Assembly: GCA_965203805.1 (NCBI GenBank)
Contig: OZ241917.1
Span: 160,001 to 224,000 of the forward strand
Source: Candidatus Latescibacterota bacterium
GTDB taxonomy: Bacteria > Latescibacterota > UBA2968 > GCA-2709665
Direction: 5' to 3'
DNA: 64,000 nucleotides
Of the stretch, positions 7,176 to 64,000 are shown piece by piece (within the stretch, counting starts at the first letter, position 1; every line of letters starts with the position of its first letter). Below the pieces are notes generated by a model. It made no database searches, was not told the origin of the DNA, and saw only the letters and a program-made list of their open reading frames with translations. A program made the translations under genes and the position numbers.

Positions 7176-8517
7176 CCGGATAGAGCTTGACATCGAGGGG
7201 CTCGACAGGAGGGGCAATGGGGTGGGCCGCGTTGGCGAGTACACGCTGCTGGTTCGCGGCGCGGTGCCCGGAGACCGGGTCCGGGCGCGGGTGCGCAAGG
7301 TCCGAAACCGATTGAGAAGGGTCGAAGCCAGGGTGGAGGAGCTTCTCTCCTCCGAAATTCAGCGTATCGGTGCAAGCTGTTCTCACTTTGGCCTCTGCGG
7401 CGGGTGCCTGTGGCAGGATATTCCTTACGAGTCGCAGGTCCGACTGAAGCAGGACCTGGTAAGGAACTGCCTGCTTGAGGCCGGAATCGACACGGAACCC
7501 GACGCGCCGATACCTTCCGGGGAGCCGTTCTTCTACCGGAACAAGATGGAATTCTCCTTTGGCTCGTCGCCGGACGGGCGAAACGAGGTGGGATTGCACG
7601 TTTGGGGGCGCTTCGACCGTGTATTCGACCTGGACGCCTGTCATCTGCAGTCGGAATCGTCCAACCGGATCGTTGAACGCGTGCGCAACATTACCAGGTC
7701 TCTCCCCGTTTACGATTTGAAGCGGCACGACGGCCTGCTCCGGTTCCTGACCATACGGGAAGGTAAACTGACGGGTGAAACGATGGTTGTACTGACCACA
7801 TCGGGAGATGGGTTTCCCGGGGCGGAGACGTTGGGAAAAACGCTGAGGGAGTCCTTCCCGGAGGTGAAAAGCGTGATCCGCAGCGTTAATCTTCGACGGG
7901 CTCAGGTGGCCACCGGGGACCGCGAAGAGGTGCTTTCCGGTACGGGCTCGGTAAAAGAAAAACTGGGGGATTTTACTTTCGAGATATCGCCGGGCTCGTT
8001 CTTTCAGACCAACACCCGCCAGGCCGAGCATCTCTACCGGCGGGTCGTCGAATTGGCGGAGCCCGGTTCGGACGACCGGATTCTGGACGTGTATTGCGGA
8101 ACGGGCGCGATTTCGTTGTATCTTTCGCGGAAGGCAGGATACGTACTGGGCATCGAGGTCGTTGAAGGGGCGGTTCGGGATGCGATTCGCAACAGCGCCA
8201 TCAACGGTGTGTCCAACTGCGGTTTCATTGCGGGTGCGGCGGAAGATATCCTGTGGCGGATCCGGGAGCAGGGCGAGCGGTTTGACACCGTGGTCACCGA
8301 TCCCCCGCGACCGGGAATGCATCCAAAGGCGCTGAACGCGATCTGCGATCTGCGCCCGGAGCGCATCGTTTACGTCTCGTGTAATCCGGAGGCGCTGGGT
8401 TCGGACTTGAAGCGGCTGGAGGCGGGGGGTTACAGGACGGACTATGTGCAACTCGTGGATATGTTCCCCCACACGCCCCATTGCGAGGTTGTGGCCCGGT
8501 TGGCGGATACGGCCTGA
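7153..8517 (+). CDS. rlmD: 23S rRNA m5U methyltransferase (RlmD/TrmA family)
   Basis: N-terminal TRAM domain, CSHFGLCGGC Fe-S motif, YRNKMEF, SFFQTN, DVYCGTG, DPPRPG, YVSCNP, DMFPHTPH; GTG start chosen after GGAGGG. Confidence 0.9.
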   Translation: MLRPRRGDRIELDIEGLDRRGNGVGRVGEYTLLVRGAVPGDRVRARVRKVRNRLRRVEARVEELLSSEIQRIGASCSHFGLCGGCLWQDIPYESQVRLKQDLVRNCLLEAGIDTEPDAPIPSGEPFFYRNKMEFSFGSSPDGRNEVGLHVWGRFDRVFDLDACHLQSESSNRIVERVRNITRSLPVYDLKRHDGLLRFLTIREGKLTGETMVVLTTSGDGFPGAETLGKTLRESFPEVKSVIRSVNLRRAQVATGDREEVLSGTGSVKEKLGDFTFEISPGSFFQTNTRQAEHLYRRVVELAEPGSDDRILDVYCGTGAISLYLSRKAGYVLGIEVVEGAVRDAIRNSAINGVSNCGFIAGAAEDILWRIREQGERFDTVVTDPPRPGMHPKALNAICDLRPERIVYVSCNPEALGSDLKRLEAGGYRTDYVQLVDMFPHTPHCEVVARLADTA

Positions 8518-8598: not shown

Positions 8599-9072
8599 CT
8601 AATCCCTGCTGATATCCAGAATTTCGTACGCCAGCGTACCCACGGGAACCTTCGCTTCCACCTTCTCTCCAACGCCTTTGCCCAGAAGCGCCCGACCCAC
8701 GGGGGATTGTGTTGAGATCTTGTTCTGTTCGAAATCGGCCTCGTCCGTGGATACCAGCGTATACCGGATGTGCTCGCCGGTCCTGCGGTCCTTCAACGTC
8801 ACCGTAGCGCCAAGATATGCCTTGTCCTTGGCCATCAGGCTCTCGTCGATGATTTCAGATCTGACCAACTTGTCCTGGAGTTCGGCGATCTTCTTTTCGA
8901 CGAACATCTGACGTTCTTTCGCGCTGTGGTATTCCGCGTTCTCACTCAGGTCTCCATGTTCCCGGGCCCTGGCGATGGCCTCGATAACCGCCGGCCGTTC
9001 CCGGGTTCTGAGACGCTCCAGTTCGTTCCGGATCTTGTTGTAACCGTCTTTCGTGAGGTAAAGCCGATCCAT
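8599..9072 (-). CDS. greA: Transcription elongation factor GreA
   Basis: YLTKDGY..AREHGDLSENAEYH..IS..SPVGRALLGK; ATG start at 9072. Confidence 0.96.
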   Translation of the reverse strand: MDRLYLTKDGYNKIRNELERLRTRERPAVIEAIARAREHGDLSENAEYHSAKERQMFVEKKIAELQDKLVRSEIIDESLMAKDKAYLGATVTLKDRRTGEHIRYTLVSTDEADFEQNKISTQSPVGRALLGKGVGEKVEAKVPVGTLAYEILDISRD

Positions 9073-51912: not shown

Positions 51913-52830
51913 CTATTCGTTCGATCGGTCGTCACGCCAGGACGGCTCGGTCCATGTATTGTGCCAGTTCCATTTCCAGAGCACCCGCTTCGAAGGCAGT
52001 TCCACTTCGTATTCCACCCCAGCCGTGAAGGGCAGCACACGGGTTCTCTTTCCCACGGCCTCCCGAATCCATTCAATGAAAGCGCCCACGTCCGTGACGT
52101 CGGGCGGCCAGGTCCCGTGCGGGATCGGGTCCGACGCGCGGTCGGTGCGGTAGTGGATGGGTATCAGGAACTCCGGCTCGATGGCTTCGATGCATCGGAT
52201 AAGCTTGTCCGTGCGGTCCTCCCCGCCCCATTCCGTGAGGCCCATCTTCATATGGATGAGGTAGGTGACCCGGCCTCGCAGCTTCTCGAGCGCAAGGTAG
52301 GGTTCGGTGAGGTCACCCGTGTGCAGAAACGAGACGCCGAGGTCCCGGACGGTGACGAGGTATCCGCAGTTGGGCAGGTCCGGCCTCTGGTTTTCCCCGC
52401 TTTCGATGATGTCCACGTGAACGGGCCCGAGGTCCAGTTCGAACGGGCCGGGAAAGATGCGGGATTCTCCGCCGACGTGGCTCAGGTGACGGGGGAAGAC
52501 GACCTGCACGATGTTGGGATCCAGGTACTTCGTAATGGGCAGGTCCCGGTCGAACGCGGCGTCTCGGTATTTTTCGTCAACCGGTTGATCGGGATCGCAG
52601 CACCCAGGGCTGACGAAGATTTTCTTGAAGCGATCGCCTCGGCAGAGCCGGCGAAGCGTGCCCGGATGGCAGTGGTCGAAGTGTTCGTGGCTGATGAAGA
52701 TGTAGTCGAAATCGGGCGACGCGCCGGTCAGATGATCGCCAAACAGGTAGGGGTCGAAGGCGAAGTTGACCGCGTCGGTCCGGACCTCGAATCCACCGCA
52801 GCCGGTCCATTTGAGAAAGATCGGATTCAT
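51913..52830 (-). CDS. MBL-fold metallo-hydrolase
   Basis: FDPY, ISHEHFDH, HTGD, IPIHY. Confidence 0.88.
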   Translation of the reverse strand: MNPIFLKWTGCGGFEVRTDAVNFAFDPYLFGDHLTGASPDFDYIFISHEHFDHCHPGTLRRLCRGDRFKKIFVSPGCCDPDQPVDEKYRDAAFDRDLPITKYLDPNIVQVVFPRHLSHVGGESRIFPGPFELDLGPVHVDIIESGENQRPDLPNCGYLVTVRDLGVSFLHTGDLTEPYLALEKLRGRVTYLIHMKMGLTEWGGEDRTDKLIRCIEAIEPEFLIPIHYRTDRASDPIPHGTWPPDVTDVGAFIEWIREAVGKRTRVLPFTAGVEYEVELPSKRVLWKWNWHNTWTEPSWRDDRSNE

Positions 52831-52875
52831 GGGTGACTCGCTTTTGTGATTCGTCTTATTCAAAAAACGGAACTT

Positions 52876-52901
52876 ACATGGATGGACAGGATGGACAGGA
52901 T
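52876..52901 (+). repeat. Short tandem repeat, about 9-nt period, 3 copies
   Basis: ACATGGATGG-ACAGGATGG-ACAGGAT. Confidence 0.6.
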
Positions 52902-53211
52902 AAAAACAAAAGCAGGAAGAATGCTACCTGTCATGGAATTTGCCGTTAAATCCTTCCACACCGGACCGCGCAACACAACACTGACCAACCCGGATTCTTA
53001 ACTGCAGAAACTGCCGCGGTTTTTATACGATAAATTTTTTATAAACAATATTTTATTCAATTAAAAGACCAATGTTTGTGAATCATCCAGGGGGATTGAG
53101 TCACATCTGTCCAGGATCGGTTTCAGACCTTGACGTCATTGCCCTTTTCATCTGCAATAAAGCTGCGAAACTGGTGACCCGATTGCGGTCGTTTCCGCTC
53201 TGGTTTGCACG

Positions 53212-53239
53212 TTCTGTGGCTTTCGTGCTTTTTGTGGCT
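53212..53239 (-). repeat. Short tandem repeat, 9-nt period, 3 copies
   Basis: Plus strand TTCTGTGGC-TTTCGTGCT-TTTTGTGGC. Confidence 0.55.
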
Positions 53240-53371
53240 ATAGTCGTTCGACGATCACAGATGACCGCGTCGTCTCCCCTGTAAAAGCGGACACCTGCCC
53301 GGACAACATATCGATCACGAATCGGAAAGCAAAGCATGGAATGGGGTGCGCCTGTGGCAGGAAGCGGCGAC

Positions 53372-53932: not shown

Positions 53933-54155
53933 GGGTACACGCCGCGGAGAAGTCGTTTGACCCTATACGGGGCGTCGACGATGTGTATCAATATAGCAGC
54001 AGAGAATATAAGGGAGAGTTACAATAACGCGAAATTACCAGTAAACTGAGAGTCTCCTCCAAATAGTCCGGCGTATCGGCCCCTCACTTCCGTGCTGTTC
54101 GCGTCCCCGATTCCTGATCCGCACAGGCTGTTGAAATTTCCCCGCCCCCGACCTT

Positions 54156-54207
54156 ATATAACAGTTGTTATATTTCCCTTGACAATCACCCGATCATTGT
54201 TTATATT
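54156..54207 (+). promoter_or_regulatory. Palindromic operator plus sigma70 promoter of the defence operon
   Basis: Perfect ATATAACA-GT-TGTTATAT (54156-54173), 5 nt upstream of TTGACA-17 nt-TATATT (54179-54207). Confidence 0.7.
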
Positions 54208-54241
54208 CCGTGTGCCTATATAGAAAAGACGGGGAGTCTGT

Positions 54242-57200
54242 ATGTCAACCGTTATGTCAAGCAGAATTCCAGACGATTATTACAAGCGTATCAAGAGCGC
54301 GAGAGGCGTCATGGGGCTGACCCAGACCCAGTTCGCAAACTTGATCGGAGTCTCGTTTGCTTCCGTCAATCGATGGGAAAACGGACAGTCTCGCCCGAAT
54401 GGTCTGGCATGGAGGCGCATCGTCGAACTTGAACACGAGTCCATCGCTGCAGTGGACGCAGGTCAGGACCATTCAGAGACGAAACCAACCGCTCCGCCGC
54501 AACTTGATTTCGCGGCCGACCCTCACGCCGTTTCCGTCCTCGCAGAAGCACATCGGCTGGCCTGGGGGCACCTCTTCAACCCCACGTTCGCGACCGAGAC
54601 TTCGTCAATCGATCCACTTCCTCATCAGCGCATCGCGGTATATGAGACAATGTTACAAAAGGCCCCCCTGCGATTCCTTCTCGCAGACGACGCAGGCGCC
54701 GGCAAAACGATCATGACTGGATTGTACGTTCGCGAGATGTTGTCCCGTGGATTGATACGACGCGTCTTGATCGTGCCCCCCGCCGGTCTGGTGGGTAACT
54801 GGGAGCGGGAGATGCGGACGCTGTTTCGGCTTCAGTTCCGGATCATTCACGGTACGGATGCGCAGGCCGGAAATCCATTCACGCTTCCCGAAAGCGACTT
54901 GGTCATCGTGAGCGTCGATACTCTGGCCGGAAAACGCATGTTTACGCATCTGCGAAACCGGGATACGAAGGCTTACGACCTGGTCGTTTTCGACGAAGCT
55001 CACAAGTTGTCTGCTCATCGGGCGCCAGGGTTCCAGGTACGGAAAACGGACCGATACAGACTCGGGGAAGCAATCGCCGGCGCCGAGTCCGGCGACTGCG
55101 ATTGGGCGCTTTCCTGGTCTGCCCAGCACTTGCTACTTCTGACGGCAACTCCCCATATGGGGAAGGACTATCCGTACTACGCGCTATGGCGCCTGCTGCT
55201 TCCGGAGACCCTAACGACCCAGGACGCTTTTGACGAATTCTCTAGTGAGTCCCGTTCCAGACACTTTCTCCGCCGGACGAAGGAGGAGATGGTCCACTTT
55301 GACGGGTCAGCACTGTACCCGCAGAGAAACTGCGATACCCTCAGCTACAGTCTTTCGCAGGGGCCTGGTAGCGAACAGGAACTCTACGATGAGACCACGG
55401 ATTACATTAAGTATTTCTACAACCGTGCGAGGCAGCTGAACCGTTCCGCCGCTCGGTTGGCGATGAGCGTATTCCAGCGGCGGCTGGCAAGTTCGACGTA
55501 CGCATTGATGCGATCCTTCGAGCGGCGGGAAGCGAAACTGGGCGCTTTGATCGAAGCAATACGCAGAGGCAATGTAACCGAGGAACAGCTGGTTCGCCAA
55601 CAGCGGCAGTTGGATGGTCTCGACGACGCATTCGAAACGCGTACCTTTGATGAGGATCCGGATACGGATGATGGACAGGAGCAGGACGAGGCGTACGAAA
55701 GCCAGGCATTAGGCGGCACCGTGGCTGTCAGTCTTGTCGAACTGGAGGATGAACGACGCAGGGTGGTAGGGCTGCTGAGCAGGGCTCGTGATCGACTCGA
55801 AGTGGGCGAGGAATCGAAATTTGAAAGGCTTCGAGAGGTACTTCGGGAACCCAAATACGCAAACGAGAAATTTATCATCTTCACGGAACACCGGGACACC
55901 GCCGTCTTCCTTGTACGTCGACTTGAGGGTCTCGGCTTCACGGGGCGTGTCGCCCTGATTCACGGTGGATTGGCGTATCAAGAGCGAGAGAGACAGGTGG
56001 AATTCTTCCGGCGGCCGGCGACAGAGGGTGGCGCCAGCTACCTCGTTGCGACCGACGCAGCCGGTGAGGGAATAAACCTGCAATTCTGCTGGCTGATGGT
56101 TAATTACGACATACCCTGGAATCCTGCACGGCTCGAACAGCGGATGGGGCGCATTCACCGCTACGGCCAAGTGCACGATCCTGTAATCGTCGTCAATCTC
56201 GTCGCAGGCGGAACGCGAGAAGGGCGGGTCTTGAAAACCCTTCTCGACAAGCTGGAGGCAATGCGGCGACAGCTGCAATCCGACAAGGTATTCGACGTTG
56301 TCGGACGTCTCTTCGCAGATGTATCCATACGGGAATATCTCGAACAGGCGGTCACCCAGAACGCCGAAGCTGCTGCAAGTCGACTGGAGGGCGACCTTAC
56401 GGTGGAGCAGATGGAGGCTCTCGACGATAAAGAACGCTCGATTTATGGCGAAGGGGGTGACGTACGGCGCAGGCTTACCCGTCTCAACAAAGATACAGAT
56501 CAGGAGTCCTTTCGCAGGCTCCTGCCCGGATTCGTTCGCCGTTTCGTGGCCAAGGCCGCGCCTCTGCTCGACCTGCGGGTGGATGGCGATCTGGAACAGT
56601 CCTTCGCACTCGTTCCGGGAAGCGCTCGCGCCGGCAATCTCGTCTTGTCTGCACTCGACACGTACCCCGAAACCGCGCAGGGTCGGCTGACGGTCTACAG
56701 GTCGGCCGGCGGAGAGGAAGCGGTGTGGATGCATCCGGGCGAACCGGTCTTCGACGCCATCTCGGCGTCGATTATAAGCCGGTACGAACGTGAGGGTGTC
56801 CGCGGATCGGTGTTCATCGACCCGGAAGCGTCCGAGCCCTATCTGTTCCATATTGCGAGAATGACGGTAGAAGAGGAAGGTCCGGTCGCCACGCGGTCGC
56901 CTGAATTGCCGGACGAAGATCCTGCCGCGGTATCACGCTCAAGGCTTCTTGATTCCAGACTGATCGGGCTACGTCAATCGAGCGATGGAAACGTCGAGGA
57001 GTCACAGGTGGAACGCATGCTCATATTGCAGGAGGCGGACGGCTTCGCGCCCGGGCGTGAGCCGCTAGCGGCCGCGGCTCTGAGTCTCCTTTCAGATGTC
57101 GCTCGGTTTGCGCGTGAAGACGTACTTGAGTCCCTCCTGGAACAACATCGACAGCGCCGTACCGCCGAACTGTCGGCCCGTATCGACTTTGTCAATCGCG

Positions 57201-57856
57201 GATTCGACTATGAGGCTGCGGAACTCGCATCAGCACGTTCGCGGCTTACCGCGCAGGCTCGAGCGGGCGACAGCAAGGCAAACGCAAGACTTGGCTATGT
57301 TAAGGCACGTCAACGGCTCCAGGCTGCGTGCCGGGCTAGACGCCAGGCCGAACTGACGGGCGAATCAGACATTGCCGGGGCTGGTGAGGTCGAGTTTCTG
57401 GTTCATGCGCTTGTCGTGCCGGCTCAGAACAATGAAGATTCAGACCGTTATGACACGGACATCGAAGCTATCGCAATGGAAGTCGCGATCGACTATGAAA
57501 GGAGTTTCGGCGCTGATGTGAAGGATGTATCCAAACCCAAACTTGCCCGGCGCGTCGGACTCCCCGACTGGCCGGGATTTGACGTACTTTCGGTCCGTGA
57601 CTGCGCGGAGCGTCGCAGGATAGAGGTCAAGGGACGCGCCGGTACCGGAAGCGTAGAGATGAGGGCGAATGAGTGGGCTAACGCCTGCATCCACCGCAAC
57701 GAATACTGGCTCTACGTCGTCTTTGACTGTGCATCACCCCGACCACGCCTCGTAAGGGTGCGTGATCCGTTTACCAAACTGCTCGTCAGTAGACGCGAGA
57801 CTGTAGCCCACACCATCACGCCTGGTGAAATATCGAAGGCAGCCGAGGACCGGTGA
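54242..57856 (+). CDS. XRE-HTH + SNF2-family helicase + C-terminal DUF3883/NOV-like nuclease domain
   Basis: LTQTQFA.LIGVSFASVNRWENG (HTH_3); PLPHQ, LLADDAGAGKT, FDEAH, LTATPH, EGINLQ, WNP.RLEQRMGRIHRYGQ; GFDVLS..IEVKGR..NEW. Confidence 0.9.
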   Translation: MSTVMSSRIPDDYYKRIKSARGVMGLTQTQFANLIGVSFASVNRWENGQSRPNGLAWRRIVELEHESIAAVDAGQDHSETKPTAPPQLDFAADPHAVSVLAEAHRLAWGHLFNPTFATETSSIDPLPHQRIAVYETMLQKAPLRFLLADDAGAGKTIMTGLYVREMLSRGLIRRVLIVPPAGLVGNWEREMRTLFRLQFRIIHGTDAQAGNPFTLPESDLVIVSVDTLAGKRMFTHLRNRDTKAYDLVVFDEAHKLSAHRAPGFQVRKTDRYRLGEAIAGAESGDCDWALSWSAQHLLLLTATPHMGKDYPYYALWRLLLPETLTTQDAFDEFSSESRSRHFLRRTKEEMVHFDGSALYPQRNCDTLSYSLSQGPGSEQELYDETTDYIKYFYNRARQLNRSAARLAMSVFQRRLASSTYALMRSFERREAKLGALIEAIRRGNVTEEQLVRQQRQLDGLDDAFETRTFDEDPDTDDGQEQDEAYESQALGGTVAVSLVELEDERRRVVGLLSRARDRLEVGEESKFERLREVLREPKYANEKFIIFTEHRDTAVFLVRRLEGLGFTGRVALIHGGLAYQERERQVEFFRRPATEGGASYLVATDAAGEGINLQFCWLMVNYDIPWNPARLEQRMGRIHRYGQVHDPVIVVNLVAGGTREGRVLKTLLDKLEAMRRQLQSDKVFDVVGRLFADVSIREYLEQAVTQNAEAAASRLEGDLTVEQMEALDDKERSIYGEGGDVRRRLTRLNKDTDQESFRRLLPGFVRRFVAKAAPLLDLRVDGDLEQSFALVPGSARAGNLVLSALDTYPETAQGRLTVYRSAGGEEAVWMHPGEPVFDAISASIISRYEREGVRGSVFIDPEASEPYLFHIARMTVEEEGPVATRSPELPDEDPAAVSRSRLLDSRLIGLRQSSDGNVEESQVERMLILQEADGFAPGREPLAAAALSLLSDVARFAREDVLESLLEQHRQRRTAELSARIDFVNRGFDYEAAELASARSRLTAQARAGDSKANARLGYVKARQRLQAACRARRQAELTGESDIAGAGEVEFLVHALVVPAQNNEDSDRYDTDIEAIAMEVAIDYERSFGADVKDVSKPKLARRVGLPDWPGFDVLSVRDCAERRRIEVKGRAGTGSVEMRANEWANACIHRNEYWLYVVFDCASPRPRLVRVRDPFTKLLVSRRETVAHTITPGEISKAAEDR

Positions 57857-57881
57857 ACCGATACGTATACAATCCTCGCCG

Positions 57882-59498
57882 ATGAGGAGTCTCAACGTGA
57901 TCACAAAAGCCATGCGGTTCTTCAACACGGCTGGTCCCATCGATACCGAGATGCACTACCATATCCCGCCCCTTGCGCGGCTGGACGCGGAGGACCTCAT
58001 GCTGCTCATCCGGCAGCAGAAGTACTTCGTCCTGCACGCGCCGCGGCAGACCGGCAAGACATCGGCATTGTTCGCCTTGAGGGACCAGCTCAACACCAGC
58101 GGCGAGTTTCGCTGCGTCTACGTAAACGTCGAGGTCGGCCAGTCAGCGCGAGAGGACGTGGCCGCCGCGATGCGGGCCATACTCGGTCAGATGGCTTCGG
58201 AGGCGGAGTACGTTTTGAGCGACTCGACTCTTGCGAAACTAAGCCTCGACACATTCGAGGCGTTCGGCCCGCACCAGGCGCTCCGAGGGACATTGGCGCG
58301 CTGGGCCGAGTCGGACGCCAGGCCACTGGTGCTCATGCTCGACGAGATCGACGCGCTGATCGGCGACACCCTGCTGGCAGTGCTGCGGCAACTGCGTGCC
58401 GGCTATCCGGAACGCCCGCGCCGCTTTCCGCAGAGTGTGATTCTGTGCGGGGTGCGCGACGTGCGGGACTACCGCATCCGGTCGTCCGTCGAGAACGCCG
58501 TCGTCGCCGGTGGCAGCGCCTTCAACGTCCGCGCCGAGTCCCTGCGGCTGGGTGACTTCACCCGCGCCGACGTCGAGCGCCTGCTGGCGCAGCACACCTC
58601 GGAGACCGGCCAGTCGTTCGCCGGCGAGGCGCGCGCCGCGGTCTGGGAGTTGACGCGGGGGCAGCCGTGGCTGGTCAACGCCCTGGCCTACGAAGCTTGC
58701 TTCAGGAACAGGGCGGGGAGAGACCGTGAGCGTACGATCACTGCCGAAGCCGTCCAGGACGCGCGCGAAGATTTGATCCTGCGCCGCGAGACCCATTTGG
58801 ATCAACTCACCGACAAGCTGCAGGAGGAACGAGTGCGCCGCGTGGTCGAGCCACTGCTGAGCGGCGGCGGTGCCGATCCGGTTGCAGACGATGATCTTCA
58901 GTACGTCCGCGACCTGGGTCTGGTGGGCCAGGGCAAGCCCGTCGCGATTGCCAACCCGATTTACCGCGAAGTGATCCCGCGCGCCCTCACCTATACCACA
59001 CAGGAGATGTCGATCCATCACGACCCGGCCTGGTACGTCGACGCCGATGGGAGCCTGGAGGCGAGTAGACTGCTGGCCGCGTTCCAAGAGTTTTTCCGTG
59101 AACACTCCGAACATTGGGAGGAGCGATTCCAGTACAAGGAGGCCGGACCGCAGTTGCTGCTGCAGGCGTTCCTGCAGCGCATCGTCAACAGCGGGGGACG
59201 TATTGAGCGCGAGTATGGCTTGGGCCGGGGACGCACGGATATGCTGTTGGTGTGGCCGGTGAGCGGGGATACCGGCCGTAAGCAGAAGGTCGTCGTCGAA
59301 TGTAAAATCCTGCGCCGGGGGCTGGAGCGAACGCTGGTCGAGGGATTGGCGCAGACGCGCGCCTACATGGATCGCTGCGCCGCGGCGGAGGGGCATCTCG
59401 TGCTCTTTGACCGGAGCAAGGACAGGTCGTGGGACGACAAGGTGTATCGCCGCGAGGAAACCGAAGGCGGCGCGCGGGTTACGGTGTGGGGAATGTGA
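57882..59498 (+). CDS. AAA-family ATPase with C-terminal PD-(D/E)XK nuclease-like domain (start 57882, 57897 or 57912)
   Basis: FFNTAGP, Walker A APRQTGKT, Walker B LMLDEID, GQPWLVN, EREY..GRGRTD....VVECK. Confidence 0.82.
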   Translation: MRSLNVITKAMRFFNTAGPIDTEMHYHIPPLARLDAEDLMLLIRQQKYFVLHAPRQTGKTSALFALRDQLNTSGEFRCVYVNVEVGQSAREDVAAAMRAILGQMASEAEYVLSDSTLAKLSLDTFEAFGPHQALRGTLARWAESDARPLVLMLDEIDALIGDTLLAVLRQLRAGYPERPRRFPQSVILCGVRDVRDYRIRSSVENAVVAGGSAFNVRAESLRLGDFTRADVERLLAQHTSETGQSFAGEARAAVWELTRGQPWLVNALAYEACFRNRAGRDRERTITAEAVQDAREDLILRRETHLDQLTDKLQEERVRRVVEPLLSGGGADPVADDDLQYVRDLGLVGQGKPVAIANPIYREVIPRALTYTTQEMSIHHDPAWYVDADGSLEASRLLAAFQEFFREHSEHWEERFQYKEAGPQLLLQAFLQRIVNSGGRIEREYGLGRGRTDMLLVWPVSGDTGRKQKVVVECKILRRGLERTLVEGLAQTRAYMDRCAAAEGHLVLFDRSKDRSWDDKVYRREETEGGARVTVWGM

Positions 59499-59889
59499 AC
59501 TGAAAAAGCTGCCGGCCGTGCGGCTAAAGAGGCTGCGAAGGAAAGCGAGATCGGTGCAAGGAGAACGGAACGTACAGCAGCCGCGTTTTCGCAAAGGGAG
59601 GCCACCCGGCGTGGTCATGCGCCAATCACCGACGGCAACGCACGTCTATTTGACGAGTACATTGGAACCGTTTAGTGGGACTGGGGAGTTCTGCACGGTG
59701 GAAGTGGTTGCGTTCGAAATGACGCGCTTCGCCGGAACAAGGCTGCTCAGAGGCAACGGACCGAGAGTGGAAATGGTGGACCGTGGCGCGATGAGGATTA
59801 AGGAGTGGCGCTATAATGGAGCAATCAGGAAACGACACTTGTCCCACAATTGACAGATCGACGGTCCATTTAAATAATAAGAGGGATTG

Positions 59890-60813
59890 ATGGCCAGAAA
59901 TTGGGAGAATGACTTCAGCCAGTGGGCGCGACCACCAGGCAGAACTGAGGATGAGCGTTGTGAAAATGCCATCAAAGCTATTCGCAATGCAATCGCCGAA
60001 AACGATAAGTTGAAGAGCCGGACACTGAAAGTTTTCCCGCATGGCTCGTACCACAACAGTGTCAATGTCCGGCAGGATAGTGACGTCGACGTGGGGATAC
60101 TTTGCGACGAGTCTTTCTTTCGCCACCTCCCCGATGGGACCACCCCTGAGACCTTTAGCCTTATTCCAGCTACCTACGTCTATACTCAGTTTAAGAACGA
60201 AATCGAGGAAGCTCTGACTGAACACTTAGGATATGGGGCTGTGCGTCGTGGAAACAAAGCCATCAATATTCGAGAAAACACGTACCATGTAGAAGCTGAC
60301 ATTGCTCCGTTCTTTGAATATCGATTCTACTCGCACGATGGAACCTATCGCTGTGGTGTAGCTTTGTCACCCGACAATGGCGGGCTGATCTATAACTACC
60401 CCGAGCGGATACTCGATAGCTGGCCGCAGATACCGATGCACTTCGAGAACGGAGTTGCTAAAAACAAAAAAACAGATCGTTCCTACAAGGGCGTCGTTCG
60501 CGTTCTCAAAAAGATACGCAACGAAATGGAGGATGCTGGCATCGCTGCCGCGAGGTCGATTCCTGGATTCTTGGTCGAGTGCATGATCTGGAATGTGCCG
60601 AATGCGTGTTTTAAGGGAAATACGTGGGACGAAAGAGTACAAGCGGTGCTTCTACACCTTTGGTCAGGTACCAAGGATGAATCGAGCTGTGAGAAATGGA
60701 AAGAGGTCAACGATATAAAGTTCCTCTTTGCATCAGCTCAACCTTGGACTATACGTGAGGCATATGCCTTCATTGACGCTGCGTGGAGCTATGTAGGTGT
60801 AAGGATAAAATGA
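59890..60813 (+). CDS. CBASS CD-NTase, CdnE-like
   Basis: W..PP..TE..RCENA...IR.A; GSY.N..NVR.DSDVD; ADIAP; NYP; NGV.KN; YK..VR.LK; F.VEC..WN. Confidence 0.88.
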   Translation: MARNWENDFSQWARPPGRTEDERCENAIKAIRNAIAENDKLKSRTLKVFPHGSYHNSVNVRQDSDVDVGILCDESFFRHLPDGTTPETFSLIPATYVYTQFKNEIEEALTEHLGYGAVRRGNKAINIRENTYHVEADIAPFFEYRFYSHDGTYRCGVALSPDNGGLIYNYPERILDSWPQIPMHFENGVAKNKKTDRSYKGVVRVLKKIRNEMEDAGIAAARSIPGFLVECMIWNVPNACFKGNTWDERVQAVLLHLWSGTKDESSCEKWKEVNDIKFLFASAQPWTIREAYAFIDAAWSYVGVRIK

Positions 60814-61454
60814 AAATTGAACGGATCCATATCTATGTCTTTGTTGGAATAGCCGCACTTGTGTGGTGGGTGACTTTGGTTTTTCAGGGTACCATTGTCA
60901 CCTGGGAACACGCAACGCCCTTCAGTGTAGTCGTATTTGCGCTTGGATTGTTTGGGTTTGCCTTCGATCGATTTTTTTGGCGTTTCAGATTATTTCACGG
61001 ATGGCTGGTTAAACGGCCGGACCTGCGCGGGACTTGGCGTGTCGAAATCCAGTCAAGTTATATCAATCCTGAGAGGATGGAGCGGGTACCCGCGTTCGTT
61101 TGCTACATGGGGGTCAAACAGACTCTTTCGGAGCTCAAGATGCATTTGATGACACCGGAATCCGAGTCCTTGTCCATCGCAGGCCACATTGCGCGCCAAC
61201 CGAGCGGAGAGGGTTATCAGGTGATCTGTAGCTACACGAACGAACCTGACATCCTTCTTCGAAACGAACGTGTTAGTGATATGCACAAGGGAATACTAAT
61301 AATCGATTCTCATGGTTCCGGTGTGCGGCCCGATACACTTACGGCGGAATACTGGACAGACCGCAAGACGGTGGGTACGATGGTTTTCAGCATGCGTGCC
61401 AACGAGGTTTTTACCCGCTTTGAAGACGCGAGGCAGTATTTCGAGCAAAGCTAA
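60810..61454 (+). CDS. CBASS effector, two TM helices plus beta-barrel (Cap15/S-2TM-beta-like)
   Basis: Two N-terminal TM segments; RPDLRGTW, I/V.QT, T.ES.S, Y.NEP, H.G, YWTDR.T.G; ATGA overlap with the CD-NTase stop. Confidence 0.85.
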   Translation: MKIERIHIYVFVGIAALVWWVTLVFQGTIVTWEHATPFSVVVFALGLFGFAFDRFFWRFRLFHGWLVKRPDLRGTWRVEIQSSYINPERMERVPAFVCYMGVKQTLSELKMHLMTPESESLSIAGHIARQPSGEGYQVICSYTNEPDILLRNERVSDMHKGILIIDSHGSGVRPDTLTAEYWTDRKTVGTMVFSMRANEVFTRFEDARQYFEQS

Positions 61455-61510
61455 TCAGACATTCAGATGCCAATCTTTGCATACCCAATCTTAATCGAGC
61501 CGAATAAGAC

Positions 61511-61642
61511 GTGACCCCCGACGACAAGCGCCTCATTGAAAATGCCTTCCCGCTCATGCAGATTTCTCTCGACTCCGTACACGAGAAGAACGTGCAGTAC
61601 GGGCACATATCCACCCTAAAAATACGGAACAGCCAAAAATGA
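61511..61642 (+). pseudogene. Truncated second copy of the DUF1156 methyltransferase 5' end (open 43-codon ORF)
   Basis: MTPDDKRLIENAFPLMQISLDSVHEKNVQYGHISTLKIRNSQK*; 28/36 aa and 82/108 nt identical (hand count) to 63537-63644. Confidence 0.88.
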
Positions 61643-63540
61643 TCAAAACTAACCTATCTTTCTCTTTACCGCAGCCATGGCAAGGGCAGACATTCAGCAT
61701 TCAGGAGGTTGGTCCGATAAACTATCTTGTAGGTCCAAATGGAAGTGGCAAAACTCAATTCGCGGGTGAATTGGTCCGACACCTCGAAGAGTCACGCCTG
61801 CTTGGTACAGATAGGCTAAGTGAAATGGGGAGATCCTCGCAGGTAAGAACCTATTTCGGTGACCCATTTGACGAAGGTTTCCCATCGCGCCATTTCGACC
61901 AATTAAGATTAGCTGGTGCGGATGGATCAGGTATTGACACAATAGTCCTACTGGAAGAGAGAATGGACCTCCGTATCCAGGTTGAAGCAATTCTTAGTAG
62001 TCTCTTCGATCGAGAGATTATCCTCGAATGGGAATCAGGATTTCTTGTACCCTACATACGACGCAGAGGAGACAGCGCATCTTACAGGCTGGATCGCGAA
62101 GAGTGCCATGGAATCAAGGAACTCTTAGTGATGTTGACGCACCTTTATGACGACGAGCGTAAGTACCTAATTGTAGACGAACCCGAGCTCAATTTACACC
62201 CTCAACATCAAGCTTTCTTTTTACAGGAAGTTCGTAAGCTCGCAGGAGATCCATCAACCGACAGTAGAAAGAAAATCGTATTCCTGATTACGCACTCCCC
62301 ATTTATCCTGGACTTTCGGTCCGAGGACGATCTGAAGTCAGTCATATCCTTCAGCCTGGATTACTCCTCCCCGAAGCAGATTGCCAATCTTGACCTGGAA
62401 ACATCCTTGAGATCGTTTTCGTTAGCAGGAAGAATGAACACGAATCATAAGCAACTCTTTTTTTCCGACAATCCAATCTTCGTCGAAGGTCTTCTCGACG
62501 CCCAGCTAATTGCGGCAATGATGGAGGCTCGCGGTGCGTCAGTCGCTGCCGCCGGAAGTTGTATCATTGACTCGGGTGGTTCCGAGGAAGTTAACCATTA
62601 TTTGACCTTGTGCAAAGGTCTTGGCAAGGAAGCTCATTTCCTTTATGACCTCGATAGTTTATTTGGTGGAAACCTACGGGCTTGCATACGAGATGACCAA
62701 TCGGTACGAAGCTTTTTGGCAGCTGCTGGACTCGGAAGTGACTTTGGTAAATATTGCGGCGCGCTGGACAGGAAACTCAAATGCCTGATAGATCTCTTAC
62801 TCACGATTCCTTCTCAACAAGGTCATCTTGCAGGGTTACACGACTTTCTGAAATCGCTCGGTAAAATGCCTTGGGATAAAGGTAAACTGGCAAGGGCACG
62901 AACAGCAGTAATGACGGCGATAAGCAAGCATAGAGAAGACATCATACGATCGGTTTCGCCGCAATTGGTCGCGGATATAGAAGGTCATAGGGAACAAATA
63001 CTTACAGCCTTGAAGCAGAAGAATATCAGTGTCTTACCGGGAGGAAGTATAGAACGATACCTGCCACACTATACGGGAGATGAATACCGCCTTAACGATG
63101 AGCAAAAACGAAAAGCCGTAAATTCAGAGATCCGAGAATTCCCCAACTTGGCCAGTGAAGAAGCGTTTGCTAATAGATACGGGCAATTGTACGAAGCCAT
63201 TTGTGCCTTGCCATCAAAGGATGATGTGGACGTCGATACAGTTCTTCGAAAATACATAAGTGACTACATACATGAGCTTCAGAAAGTAATACTGGAAAAT
63301 TCCGGTCTTAGCCGCAAACAAATACTACGACGTTTGAATGCCATTCTTCCAGGACTTTCCCGAGTTTTTTCTCTCTCTACATATGAGTCGAGCCAGCAGG
63401 ACGAGTTCAGCGCGACAATCGAAATCGCAAGAATGCTTGGCGTCGAAAAGCGTGTTGTATACGTAAGCCACCGAACTAACGCAGGCATGGGGAAATTCGA
63501 TATAGAGGAAGCTACAAAAATGAGCGAGAACGCACTATGA
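61639..63540 (+). CDS. OLD-family-like ABC-ATPase + TOPRIM nuclease
   Basis: Walker A GPNGSGKT, Walker B LIVDEPELNLHP, ITHSP, TOPRIM FVEG..D and YDLD, G.IERYL; visibly lower GC than host genes. Confidence 0.82.
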   Translation: MIKTNLSFSLPQPWQGQTFSIQEVGPINYLVGPNGSGKTQFAGELVRHLEESRLLGTDRLSEMGRSSQVRTYFGDPFDEGFPSRHFDQLRLAGADGSGIDTIVLLEERMDLRIQVEAILSSLFDREIILEWESGFLVPYIRRRGDSASYRLDREECHGIKELLVMLTHLYDDERKYLIVDEPELNLHPQHQAFFLQEVRKLAGDPSTDSRKKIVFLITHSPFILDFRSEDDLKSVISFSLDYSSPKQIANLDLETSLRSFSLAGRMNTNHKQLFFSDNPIFVEGLLDAQLIAAMMEARGASVAAAGSCIIDSGGSEEVNHYLTLCKGLGKEAHFLYDLDSLFGGNLRACIRDDQSVRSFLAAAGLGSDFGKYCGALDRKLKCLIDLLLTIPSQQGHLAGLHDFLKSLGKMPWDKGKLARARTAVMTAISKHREDIIRSVSPQLVADIEGHREQILTALKQKNISVLPGGSIERYLPHYTGDEYRLNDEQKRKAVNSEIREFPNLASEEAFANRYGQLYEAICALPSKDDVDVDTVLRKYISDYIHELQKVILENSGLSRKQILRRLNAILPGLSRVFSLSTYESSQQDEFSATIEIARMLGVEKRVVYVSHRTNAGMGKFDIEEATKMSENAL

Positions 63541-64000
63541 ACGCCAATGACAAACGCCTTATCGAAGTCGCCTTCCCGCTGAAGCAGGTCTCCCTCGACT
63601 CTGTCCACGAGAAAAACGTGCGGCACGGCCATATTTCCACGCTCCACATCTGGCCGGCAAGGAGGCCGTTGGCGGCTTGTCGTGCGGCCTTGATCGCCAC
63701 GCTGCTTCCCGACCCGGGCGACGCGGAAACCCGAAACGCGATTATGGAACGTATGGCTGGTCGCATTATCGACAAGATCGAGCGCAAGCGGGTGAACGGC
63801 CGCCTGGTTGAGAAGACCAAGCCTGAGACGCTTGGAGGCATCCTTCACTGGAAACGCGAAAGTGATTCAGATCTCACGTGGTTCCGCGATGAGATCCGCA
63901 AAGCTTACGGCGGGCGTGAGCCAAAAGTTTTGGACCCGTTTGCGGGTGGGGGTGCCATTCCCCTCGAAGCCTTGCGTCTCGGTTGTGACGTCACGGCCAT
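63537..64000 (+). CDS. DUF1156 adenine DNA methyltransferase (3' truncated by window edge; absent from ORF track)
   Basis: Translated by hand: MNANDKRLIEVAFPLKQVS..GHISTLHIWPARRPLAACRA..LLPDP..KVLDPFAGGGAIPLEALRLG (SAM-binding motif). Confidence 0.9.
   Translation, partial: MNANDKRLIEVAFPLKQVSLDSVHEKNVRHGHISTLHIWPARRPLAACRAALIATLLPDPGDAETRNAIMERMAGRIIDKIERKRVNGRLVEKTKPETLGGILHWKRESDSDLTWFRDEIRKAYGGREPKVLDPFAGGGAIPLEALRLGCDVTA

Follow-up and report, generated by a model that had tools for sequence, protein, structure and literature searches.

A methylase fragment within an Hma operon

Here, we explored the provenance of a short open reading frame (ORF), hereafter the stub, at positions 61511-61642 of a 64,000-nucleotide (nt) stretch of a Candidatus Latescibacterota bacterium genome (assembly GCA_965203805.1, contig OZ241917.1, positions 160,001 to 224,000; this whole stretch is the window). 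The stub lies in an operon that, judging from its gene content, represents an Hma system, i.e., a Type-1 DUF499-centred system related to BREX (bacteriophage exclusion), with embedded cassettes. All its genes are on the forward strand, in the order hmaA, cassettes, hmaB, DEAD-box helicase, hmaC and TIR protein, and the three components that define Hma are all present, namely, a Swi2/Snf2 helicase (HmaA), a DUF1156 methylase (HmaB) and, on the same strand, a DUF499 ATPase (HmaC). Embedded between hmaA and hmaB, again on one strand, are an AAA_22 ATPase gene, a CBASS (cyclic oligonucleotide-based antiphage signalling system) pair of cyclase and Cap15, the stub, and a gene for an OLD-family protein, in which an ABC-type ATPase is followed by an OLD-like TOPRIM domain within one polypeptide (Table 1).

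The stub had originally been described, from the sequence of the window alone, as resembling the N-terminus of the downstream methylase in 28 of 36 residues. Over codons 1-36 of the methylase gene that starts at 63537, this count holds when the GTG of the stub is taken as Met (27 of 36 otherwise), and a codon-by-codon recount likewise returned the 26 nt differences claimed, 13 of them in codons that preserve the residue. The frame is uninterrupted, as stated, and both of the ATGA overlaps that had been pointed out are present, the TGA of the stub overlapping the ATG of OLD at 61639-61642 and the TGA of OLD overlapping the ATG of the methylase at 63537-63540. The likeness to the methylase stops at codon ~38/39. 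This match is far above chance: when the stub was compared by tblastn with the whole 5.87-Mb genome, the adjacent methylase was recovered with an E value of 1e-14, and the four paralogous DUF1156 methylases showed at most 48% identity.

A repeat of this kind might, by its mere presence, suggest an assembly chimera or a tandem duplication generated in situ, and an artefact at this point had been named as the outcome that would undo the whole observation. The probability of either is next to nil. The check was run on the contigs of 4 sequencing runs, one of which (X4) reaches only small portions of the stretch. Runs X1 and X2, possibly from the source sample, yield a single contig across 60500-64000 with 0 differences, and both junctions are bridged by three contigs of run X3, which represents a different sample within the same study. 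The order stub-OLD-methylase is also present in a second genome, G010. Contigs from two samples and the recurrence in G010, together with the 26 differences and a nearest allele that is foreign, thus refute both origins. As a separate observation, runs X1-X3 show surplus depth at 63542-63658 and 61553-61669, contributed by short contigs with 3-9 differences whose loose upstream ends are all unlike; these resemble hmaB starts of other organisms in the samples, each with its own upstream sequence.

The allele closest to the stub is the hmaB of G010 (77 of 90 nt), and the adjacent hmaB (70 of 90 nt) ranks 17th among 33. The G+C content at third codon positions is 0.74 in the stub, 0.79 in the hmaB start and 0.45 in OLD. 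The view that the stub is another allele or ortholog, and not a fresh duplication, has therefore stood: the synonymous differences are those of alleles that diverged while functional, and the nearest allele is that of G010. The different nearest neighbours anticipated for the two N-termini were found in so far as the closest relative of the stub is not the adjacent gene, the comparison being a ranking by nt identity among the 33 alleles.

Empty and occupied sites

The former context of the stub can be recognized in relatives that lack the insertion. Three genomes, G110, G130 and G093, encode orthologs of the CD-NTase (the cyclase) and Cap15, with 63-79% amino acid (aa) identity, directly 5' of hmaB, with neither OLD nor a stub. 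The 3' end of Cap15, the spacer, the start codon (ATG there, GTG here) and the codons up to ~39 align between these empty sites and the window; beyond that codon, the sequence of the empty-site relatives is still that of hmaB, and the window has diverged into the OLD leader. Global alignment of the spacers of the window and G110 gives a score of 14, as compared with -7.4 +/- 3.9 for shuffled sequences, with 0 of 2000 shuffles scoring as high. Given that everything from the end of Cap15 through the first ~39 codons aligns with these three relatives, the stub is best regarded as a displaced hmaB start in its former context.

A second, independent case involves other genes. In G029, where the site is empty, a gene for a 1219-aa protein is followed by a 24-nt spacer and the ATG of hmaB. 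In G039 and G030, the same 1219-aa-type gene and spacer are followed by an ATG, a stub, an AAA_21 cassette (HEC-01A by PADLOC) and then hmaB. The stub of G039 and G030 opens like the hmaB of G029 (M-T-(T)-N-K-R-L), and the functional hmaB past the cassette opens M-A-x-M-T-P-N, an extension that goes with the same cassette in G087 and of which a decayed remnant is found in the orphan copy at locus L031. The stub is thus probably an hmaB start that was left behind its old neighbour once a cassette with an hmaB start of its own had come in between. In both cases, a fragment of the conserved end of the adjacent gene is found in the former context of that gene and, in the window, the fragment and the intact end are different alleles, as expected of a displacement scar. 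The 437-aa gene upstream of the stub in G010 has no homolog in any locus compared, and hence no empty-site comparator is available for that genome.

Recurrence of methylase stubs

The comparative sample consists of one bacterial class and 23 OLD loci. Its genomes are kin to one another, and it contains few independent events. The 45-residue N-terminus of HmaB, used as the query against 132 genomes of the class, yielded 136 matches, among which are 29 orthologous hmaB loci distributed over 28 genomes; a scan of 168 genomes of the phylum added no orthologous hmaB to these. Stubs precede hmaB at 7 of the 29 loci, those of the genome studied here (G000), G010, G016, G030, G039, G040 and G087, and none was found within the 4-8.5 kb examined at the other 22. 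In all 7, the gene next to the stub encodes an ABC-type ATPase, namely, OLD in G000 and G010, a 607-aa AAA_21 protein in G040, and a HEC-01-like ATPase in G039, G030, G016 and G087, where the proteins are 86-94% identical to one another and accompanied by a DUF4276 partner in three of the four. Within this orthologous family, codon ~36-39 is the breakpoint for two types of cassette, and that of a third (in G087) lies further on, with homology extending to codon ~60. Every stub of the OLD or HEC-01 type has Gln, Lys or Arg in place of His37. Only the 5' end of hmaB is duplicated, in that no fragments of the hmaB 3', hmaC 5' or hmaA 3' ends were found.

The pattern extends to paralogous DUF1156 methylases of the same class, with 11 further stubs in 8 loci. 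The cassettes behind these stubs encode a reverse transcriptase, a HerA-like ATPase, a SIR2-STAND protein, another OLD and unknowns, and their breakpoints are spread over codons 25-93, which is more in keeping with illegitimate joins than with a fixed site.

Two of the paralogous loci deserve separate description. In L020 (G065:C2:3317000-3336000, minus strand), three successive 5' stubs precede a DUF1156 methylase, with differing cassettes in between (a pair of 721 and 221 aa; an AAA_15 ATPase and a 155-aa protein with reverse-strand genes; a 641-aa reverse-transcriptase protein), an arrangement that looks like an upstream array of displaced starts. In L022 (G103:C1), a stub at 7853-8025 is 94% identical, with a 53-nt exact run, to the start of a methylase gene 890 nt further downstream (at 8743), with no obvious operon-strand gene between them; this may be a very recent event or one from which the cassette has since been deleted.

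The OLD cassette and its junction with the stub

Among the 132 genomes of the class, 3 have an ortholog of OLD, each time inside Hma. A species-wide collection comprises 23 OLD loci, those of G010 and G040 among them, which are 39-65% identical and come from several phyla. When embedded in Hma, OLD is always located directly 5' of an hmaB start, which is functional in the window and in L035, L037 and L041, and decayed in L033 and L043. In L036, OLD is accompanied by a decayed hmaB start and the flank carries no Hma genes; HEC-01-like pairs found outside Hma (L031 and L032) likewise have a decayed hmaB start on their 3' side. Given that both OLD and HEC-01-like cassettes carry hmaB starts at the 3' side, it seems likely that cassettes move along with a piece of the methylase start.

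In all, decayed 3' methylase starts accompany cassettes outside any Hma operon in L031 (G107), L032 (G088:C36), L030 (G104:C2) and L036. The cassettes are of the HEC-01-like ATPase plus DUF4276, AAA_15-like pair and OLD types, and look as if they had departed from an Hma locus with a piece of it.

The ~20 nt that precede the ATG of OLD are common to the window, G010 and G040, and 15 nt are also common with L033; G040 retains just the last ~25 nt of the stub. As the stub-OLD junction is common to G010 and G040, it predates the genome studied here. The OLD of the window is 66% identical to that of G040 and 61% identical to that of G010, and its HmaA is 65% and 76% identical, respectively, so that the OLD identities do not track HmaA. 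The same junction lies behind two different upstream genes, Cap15 with its spacer in the window and, in G010, the gene for the 437-aa protein, the stop codon of which overlaps the ATG of the stub. One junction placed behind two native settings of a gene followed by an hmaB start suggests at least one crossover inside a stub.

Seven loci were compared for G+C content: OLD has 45-47% in six of them and 53.5% in L037, and hmaB has 54-58%. A step in G+C content at the methylase start (63540) was considered as a sign of recent import and rejected, the low value being a property of OLD and the third-position content of the stub being hmaB-like.

Constraint and decay of the stubs

The N-terminus encoded by functional hmaB genes is nearly invariant: 13 of 14 are identical over residues 6-45, in a by-eye comparison of the printed matches, and the mean aa identity over codons 5-45 is 0.99. 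The stub peptide appears to be free of the constraint that holds the real N-terminus invariant. The window stub carries the replacements V11N, K16M, V18I, R29Q, H30Y and H37K, and replacements are present in 6 of the 7 orthologous stubs. Furthermore, decay is graded. The stubs of G039 and G030 share an in-frame 6-nt deletion, that of G016 is without the first ~10 codons, that of G040 is without an ATG (the stop of OLD having become TAA) and out of frame, and the equivalents in L031, L032, L033 and L036 have lost the start or the frame, the orphan stubs being heavily decayed. An open frame with a start codon is kept by the stubs of the window, G010, G039 and G030. Such gradation argues against a conserved function of the peptide. 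With about half of the differences synonymous and about half being replacements at invariant sites, the data fit a two-phase history, in which the alleles diverged while functional and the stub then drifted neutrally.

The open frame itself is not informative: when hmaB starts were subjected to 13-29 random substitutions in a simulation, 55-77% remained open, so that chance alone predicts the state seen in the window.

A proposed displacement scar and the alternatives

We propose that the stub is the displacement scar of a homology-anchored cassette insertion, a reading to which we assign a probability of roughly 0.7. Under this scenario, hmaB would initially have been located directly behind the CBASS effector gene cap15, as it still is in three relatives, and the incoming DNA would have consisted of a gene for an OLD-type ATPase-nuclease to which the start of a different hmaB allele was fused. 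On one side, the join would have been homologous, inside hmaB; on the other side, an illegitimate junction would have formed ~39 codons into the resident gene, a course of events consistent with homology-facilitated illegitimate recombination or an equivalent repair event. The first ~39 resident codons would have remained as the stub, and hmaB would have kept a complete 5' end. Of all parts of the gene, the start is the best anchor: across the first 41 aligned codons of hmaB, aa identity is 0.99 and synonymous codon identity is 0.70, vs 0.54-0.59 elsewhere, and the first 150-nt segment is the most similar one in almost all of the pairs compared. When hmaB was scanned with a sliding window for a boundary between donor and recipient, no clear 5' mosaic edge was seen, just a hypervariable middle. 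Subsequently, the stub would be no more than a stretch of DNA resembling hmaB, still able to recombine or undergo conversion with the 5' ends of hmaB genes, and the open frame and the ATGA overlaps would be inherited by-products and not selected features.

The one-sided homologous capture of a segment comprising OLD and part of a foreign methylase, one of the two explanations offered originally, is thus well supported by the empty-site relatives and the foreign nearest allele. In this genome, either side may have been the incoming one: a mirror-image event, anchored in hmaA or the AAA_22 gene and bringing in a truncated donor hmaB together with the CBASS genes, would yield the same product.

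Several points weigh against the displacement scenario. The junction is common to OLD genes that are only 61-66% identical, and a neutral stub as old as this would be expected to have become unrecognizable; repeated gene conversion or re-insertion is therefore needed, and is documented in G010 alone. An OLD gene with no Shine-Dalgarno (SD) signal above background, with ATGA overlaps kept both in the window and in G010, has the look of a selected relay. The 7 orthologous stubs are kin, representing at least three junction events, perhaps as few as three, and not seven. The OLD-type and HEC-01-type junctions coincide in breaking at codon ~36-39, which the scenario does not explain. Finally, no donor of the OLD module is known against which microhomology at the illegitimate junction could be judged.

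The coincident breakpoint leads to the alternative of site-specific insertion, whereby a mobile element, relying on an integrase of its own or on one acting in trans, would target the 5' end of hmaB and carry a replacement copy. A duplicated gene end with mostly synonymous differences would be compatible with this, as would the break of two cassette types at codon ~36-39. Nevertheless, we consider it very improbable. The Pfam matches to the ORFs that separate hmaA from hmaB include no recombinase, transposase or integrase domains, the insert consists of just one gene of 1.9 kb, and the paralogous breakpoints range over codons 25-93; inverted repeats and cores resembling attachment (att) sites were not looked for. 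Homing by the OLD nuclease was considered and dropped, given that an intact target site persists downstream of the insert and that the breakpoints vary. Hardly any better are the prospects of a functional micropeptide, a 43-residue product that would mimic the N-terminus of DUF1156, for instance, as a decoy or adaptor linking OLD to the Hma complex or to a phage inhibitor of HmaB. The open frame with a start codon in the window, G010, G039 and G030, and the position of the orthologous stubs, always ahead of ABC-type ATPase sensors, could be cited in its favour; the six replacements of the window stub, at residues that are invariant in functional copies, contradict it, as do the start losses, frameshifts and in-frame deletion seen across loci and the lengths of the paralogous stubs, which vary from 25 to 93 codons. 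Moreover, a 38-residue piece of a helical domain would be unlikely to fold alone.

The other original explanation, a retained translational relay, holds that the frame of the stub, although once a scar, has been kept because ribosomes end at the ATGA and re-initiate on OLD, a gene that would lack a ribosome-binding site of its own and the termination of which in turn feeds hmaB. The ATGA overlaps at both ends of OLD are as this model predicts, and in G010 they run through the entire chain of upstream gene, stub, OLD and hmaB. The sequence upstream of OLD pairs with the anti-SD no better than random (ΔG of -3.5 vs a random mean of -3.3, compared with -7.6 for hmaA, -6.3 for the cyclase and -5.6 for hmaB; these values were computed with a generic anti-SD consensus, which may differ from that of the organism itself), and GGAG/AGGA-like motifs can be made out by eye upstream of most OLD orthologs that lie in contexts other than this type of junction. 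There is also no terminator-like site between 59400 and 64000. Conversely, it is unclear how ribosomes would load on the stub, the GTG of which has a ΔG of -2.2, weaker than the random mean, and lies 56 nt past the stop codon of Cap15. The ATGA (Met-Ile) start is intrinsic to the OLD family, being found in 13 of 17 ortholog starts, so that the overlap requires only the right frame, a 1-in-3 chance, in addition to an open frame that is itself expected by chance. Of the 4 loci with this junction, 2 preserve the frame, the window and G010, which are the two whole-stub genomes and both retain the ATGA overlap; the frame is lost in L033 and in G040, where the same SD-less OLD leader persists with the stub almost wholly deleted; stubs also decay ahead of cassettes that have a GGAG motif of their own (G040 and G016). 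With a GTG that has no SD signal above background, a frame that stays open by chance in more than half of the simulations, and equivalents in G040, G016, L031, L032, L033 and L036 that have lost the start or the frame, the case for the relay is a mixed one; it is possible yet unproven, and in our estimation unlikely.

It had further been suggested that the two copies, as direct repeats, could let the 2-kb OLD cassette loop out or amplify, with a hybrid intact methylase as the product. The copies are indeed direct repeats, 2026 nt apart, and in G010 exchange between them looks real: the stub there is identical to its own hmaB for a run of 90 nt and then changes to the junction-type sequence common with the window stub, which points to gene conversion or a recent crossover between the copies and may explain why a stub remains recognizable at a junction shared by such divergent OLD genes. 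In the genome studied here, the identity is 77% over 106 nt and the longest exact run is 11 nt, so that loop-out is unlikely. RecA requires a length well above such a run, and homologous recombination would make a negligible contribution to loop-out in this genome. No deletion or circle joints were seen in the contigs of the 4 runs, which do not show rare forms, and this therefore does not count as evidence against loop-out. Programmed excision or amplification as the role of the repeat is, on balance, a most improbable explanation. Thus, with the displacement scar preferred, the stub in the window is most likely an ordinary and inert recombination scar, possibly co-opted for coupling.

Relationship to known systems and implications

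The Hma system, the embedded OLD and the phenomenon of embedding are known already. According to a preprint in which HEC candidates are named through 'guilt by embedding', 931 of 1,485 Hma systems contain embedded genes (bioRxiv 10.1101/2024.01.29.577857), and OLD-ABC/TOPRIM modules nested in BREX-related loci have been described as 'backup effectors' (PMC12839542). The operon in the window is the same as those treated in the accessible parts of the two papers, with HmaA, HmaB and HmaC (Type-1 BREX-related) and defence genes nested between the hma genes, and it has nested types in common with them, namely, the ATPase plus TOPRIM pair (HEC-01, matched here by PADLOC), ATPase-TOPRIM fusions and CBASS. 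On how embedding comes about, the relevant passages of the preprint offer only the idea of a 'genomic sink' (10.1101/2024.01.29.577857), and neither an insertion mechanism nor methylase 5' stubs are described in the portions of either paper available to us, supplements aside (10.1101/2024.01.29.577857; PMC12839542). The MANTIS preprint deals with another BREX-related family and was left aside.

The closest parallel is provided by the orphan toxin/immunity arrays of rhs, CDI (contact-dependent growth inhibition) and type VI secretion system (T6SS) loci, which have been ascribed, in the part of the report considered here, to homology-facilitated illegitimate recombination (PMC5361080). As in those arrays, the conserved part of a gene would serve as the anchor, the incoming module brings its own copy, and the old end is displaced yet retained; repeated events build arrays, to which the three stubs of L020 in G065 can be compared. 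Unlike those arrays, which grow downstream of a 5' core with displacement of the 3' tips, the anchor here is the 5' end of a downstream gene and growth is upstream; and the modules, unlike toxin tips, are entire defence systems, with no cognate partner for the displaced piece to keep.

Prophages and islands that integrate into a gene end with a replacement copy, for example at icd of Escherichia coli, leave an end that differs mainly synonymously, one copy completing the gene and the other becoming a stub. Unlike the icd-type prophages, the loci analysed here have no integrase and no element-sized insert, and their breakpoints vary from locus to locus; no search for an att core was made. Both overlaps, stub-OLD and OLD-hmaB, are like those of translationally coupled operons with ATGA junctions, with the difference that the upstream partner in the first overlap appears to be a gene fragment with a weak start.

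For the window alone, the result is modest. The recurrent pattern suggests a modestly new, testable clue to how Hma operons acquire embedded defences. Embedding in Hma, BREX and type I restriction-modification operons is now used for the discovery of new systems, and the stubs would be physical footprints of this process: insertions fall within the opening few tens of codons of the methylase gene and supply a substitute start, so that the methylase is preserved whole and the new gene becomes part of the operon immediately upstream of it. This amounts to a testable route for the modular growth of defence operons, and 5' fragments of methylase genes could be used as a marker for putting insertion events in order and for delimiting embedded cassettes. 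Caution is due in that annotation pipelines discard loci with duplicated or broken hma genes; indeed, the filter given in the preprint admits each hma gene once per locus and none that is a pseudogene (10.1101/2024.01.29.577857).

A more general conjecture, which we advance tentatively and with the odds rather against it, is that the first ~40 codons of DUF1156 methylase genes are a general, integrase-free docking site for defence cassettes, with the stub as a live recombination arm. If so, cassettes would travel as a cassette with an hmaB start and later, with two homology arms, as a stub end, cassette and hmaB start; ordinary recombination would let them enter any Hma locus and pile up 5' of hmaB, with earlier ones kept; and OLD and HEC-01 would be portable between Hma loci across phyla.

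Other features of the operon

Table 1. Genes and other features of the Hma operon (positions refer to the window unless a locus or genome coordinate is given)
Feature	Position	Strand	Evidence and remarks
hmaA: SNF2 helicase with N-terminal HTH and C-terminal NOV_C (PD-(D/E)xK-like); left border of the embedding zone	54242..57856	+	PADLOC HmaA E 7e-162, residues 88-1162; Pfam Helicase_C, SNF2-rel_dom, HTH_3, NOV_C at 1074-1166
AAA_22-type ATPase, embedded; start overlaps hmaA 3' end by 32 nt	57825..59498	+	Pfam AAA_22 1.7e-09; no PADLOC family
Promoter-like site (TTGACA, 17 nt, AATAAT) just 5' of the CBASS cyclase; a hint only	59850..59878	+	11/12 positions match; 6 such sites in the whole region, no excess over shuffled sequences (4.8 +/- 2.5)
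CBASS cyclase (CD-NTase), embedded	59887..60813	+	PADLOC Cyclase E 2.5e-113; Pfam SMODS, weak
CBASS effector Cap15 (2TM), embedded	60783..61454	+	Pfam Cap15_CD_rec 1.9e-14; PADLOC 2TM effector 3.4e-58
Spacer between Cap15 and stub	61455..61510	+	homologous to the Cap15-hmaB spacer of empty-site relative G110
Stub ORF	61511-61642	+	GTG start, 43 codons, TGA stop, no internal stop
Stub proper: putative displaced hmaB codons 1 to ~39	61511..61627	+	GTG aligned with ATG of empty-site relatives; local alignment with hmaB over 61512-61617, 77% identity
Junction segment: four non-hmaB codons and TGA overlapping the OLD ATG	61628..61642	+	common to G010 and G040; 15 nt also in L033
OLD-family ABC ATPase fused to TOPRIM nuclease, 633 aa, G+C content 46%	61639..63540	+	Pfam AAA_15/AAA_21 at residues 157-225, OLD-like_TOPRIM at 274-339 E 1.7e-10; PADLOC GajA/Old
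hmaB: DUF1156 N6-adenine methylase, 1060 aa; continues past the window to genome position 226716; conserved anchor in its first 45 codons	63537..64000	+	Pfam DUF1156 1.2e-18, residues 12-62; PADLOC HmaB 8.7e-113
DEAD-box helicase, 901 aa, between hmaB and hmaC; start overlaps hmaB 3' end by 47 nt	L001:5673-8378 (genome 226673-229378)	+	Pfam
hmaC: DUF499 ATPase	L001:8638-11958	+	Pfam DUF499 1.2e-18; PADLOC HmaC 1.3e-73

The AAA_22 ATPase gene directly follows hmaA in 6 related loci (L018, L056, L061, L063, L068 and L069; 68-84% identity by tblastn) and may belong to this Hma clade as a semi-core accessory gene. The gap between hmaB and hmaC is a second embedding position, without stubs of the adjoining genes; the two genes are adjacent in G029, and the gap in G010 contains no match to the DEAD-box helicase. 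Besides hmaB, the genome studied here carries four more full-length DUF1156 methylase genes, at 439975, 1430169, 4547022 and 4363562(-), which are 27-33% identical over the catalytic part and imply the presence of several Hma-like systems; no stubs were detected beside these four genes at E <= 0.001.

The middle of hmaB, ~nt 1400-2250 (genome 224950-225800; compared across loci L010-L019), is a hypervariable mosaic with pairwise identities of 35-55% between flanks of 75-95%, the segment being common to differing pairs of genomes in a manner that resembles the swapping of target-recognition domains between alleles. In L014 (G016) and L017 (G011), the genes embedded between hmaA and hmaB are those of a short prokaryotic Argonaute (pAgo) system, with a TIR-APAZ-like protein and pAgo; in L014, these have PADLOC matches (pAgo_I 7e-167 and Aga_TIR 2e-65), and L017 is assigned by similar ORF starts alone. 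Just upstream of hmaA, at 52750-53350 and 53950-54400 of the window, the G+C content dips to 43-49%, as compared with ~60% nearby.

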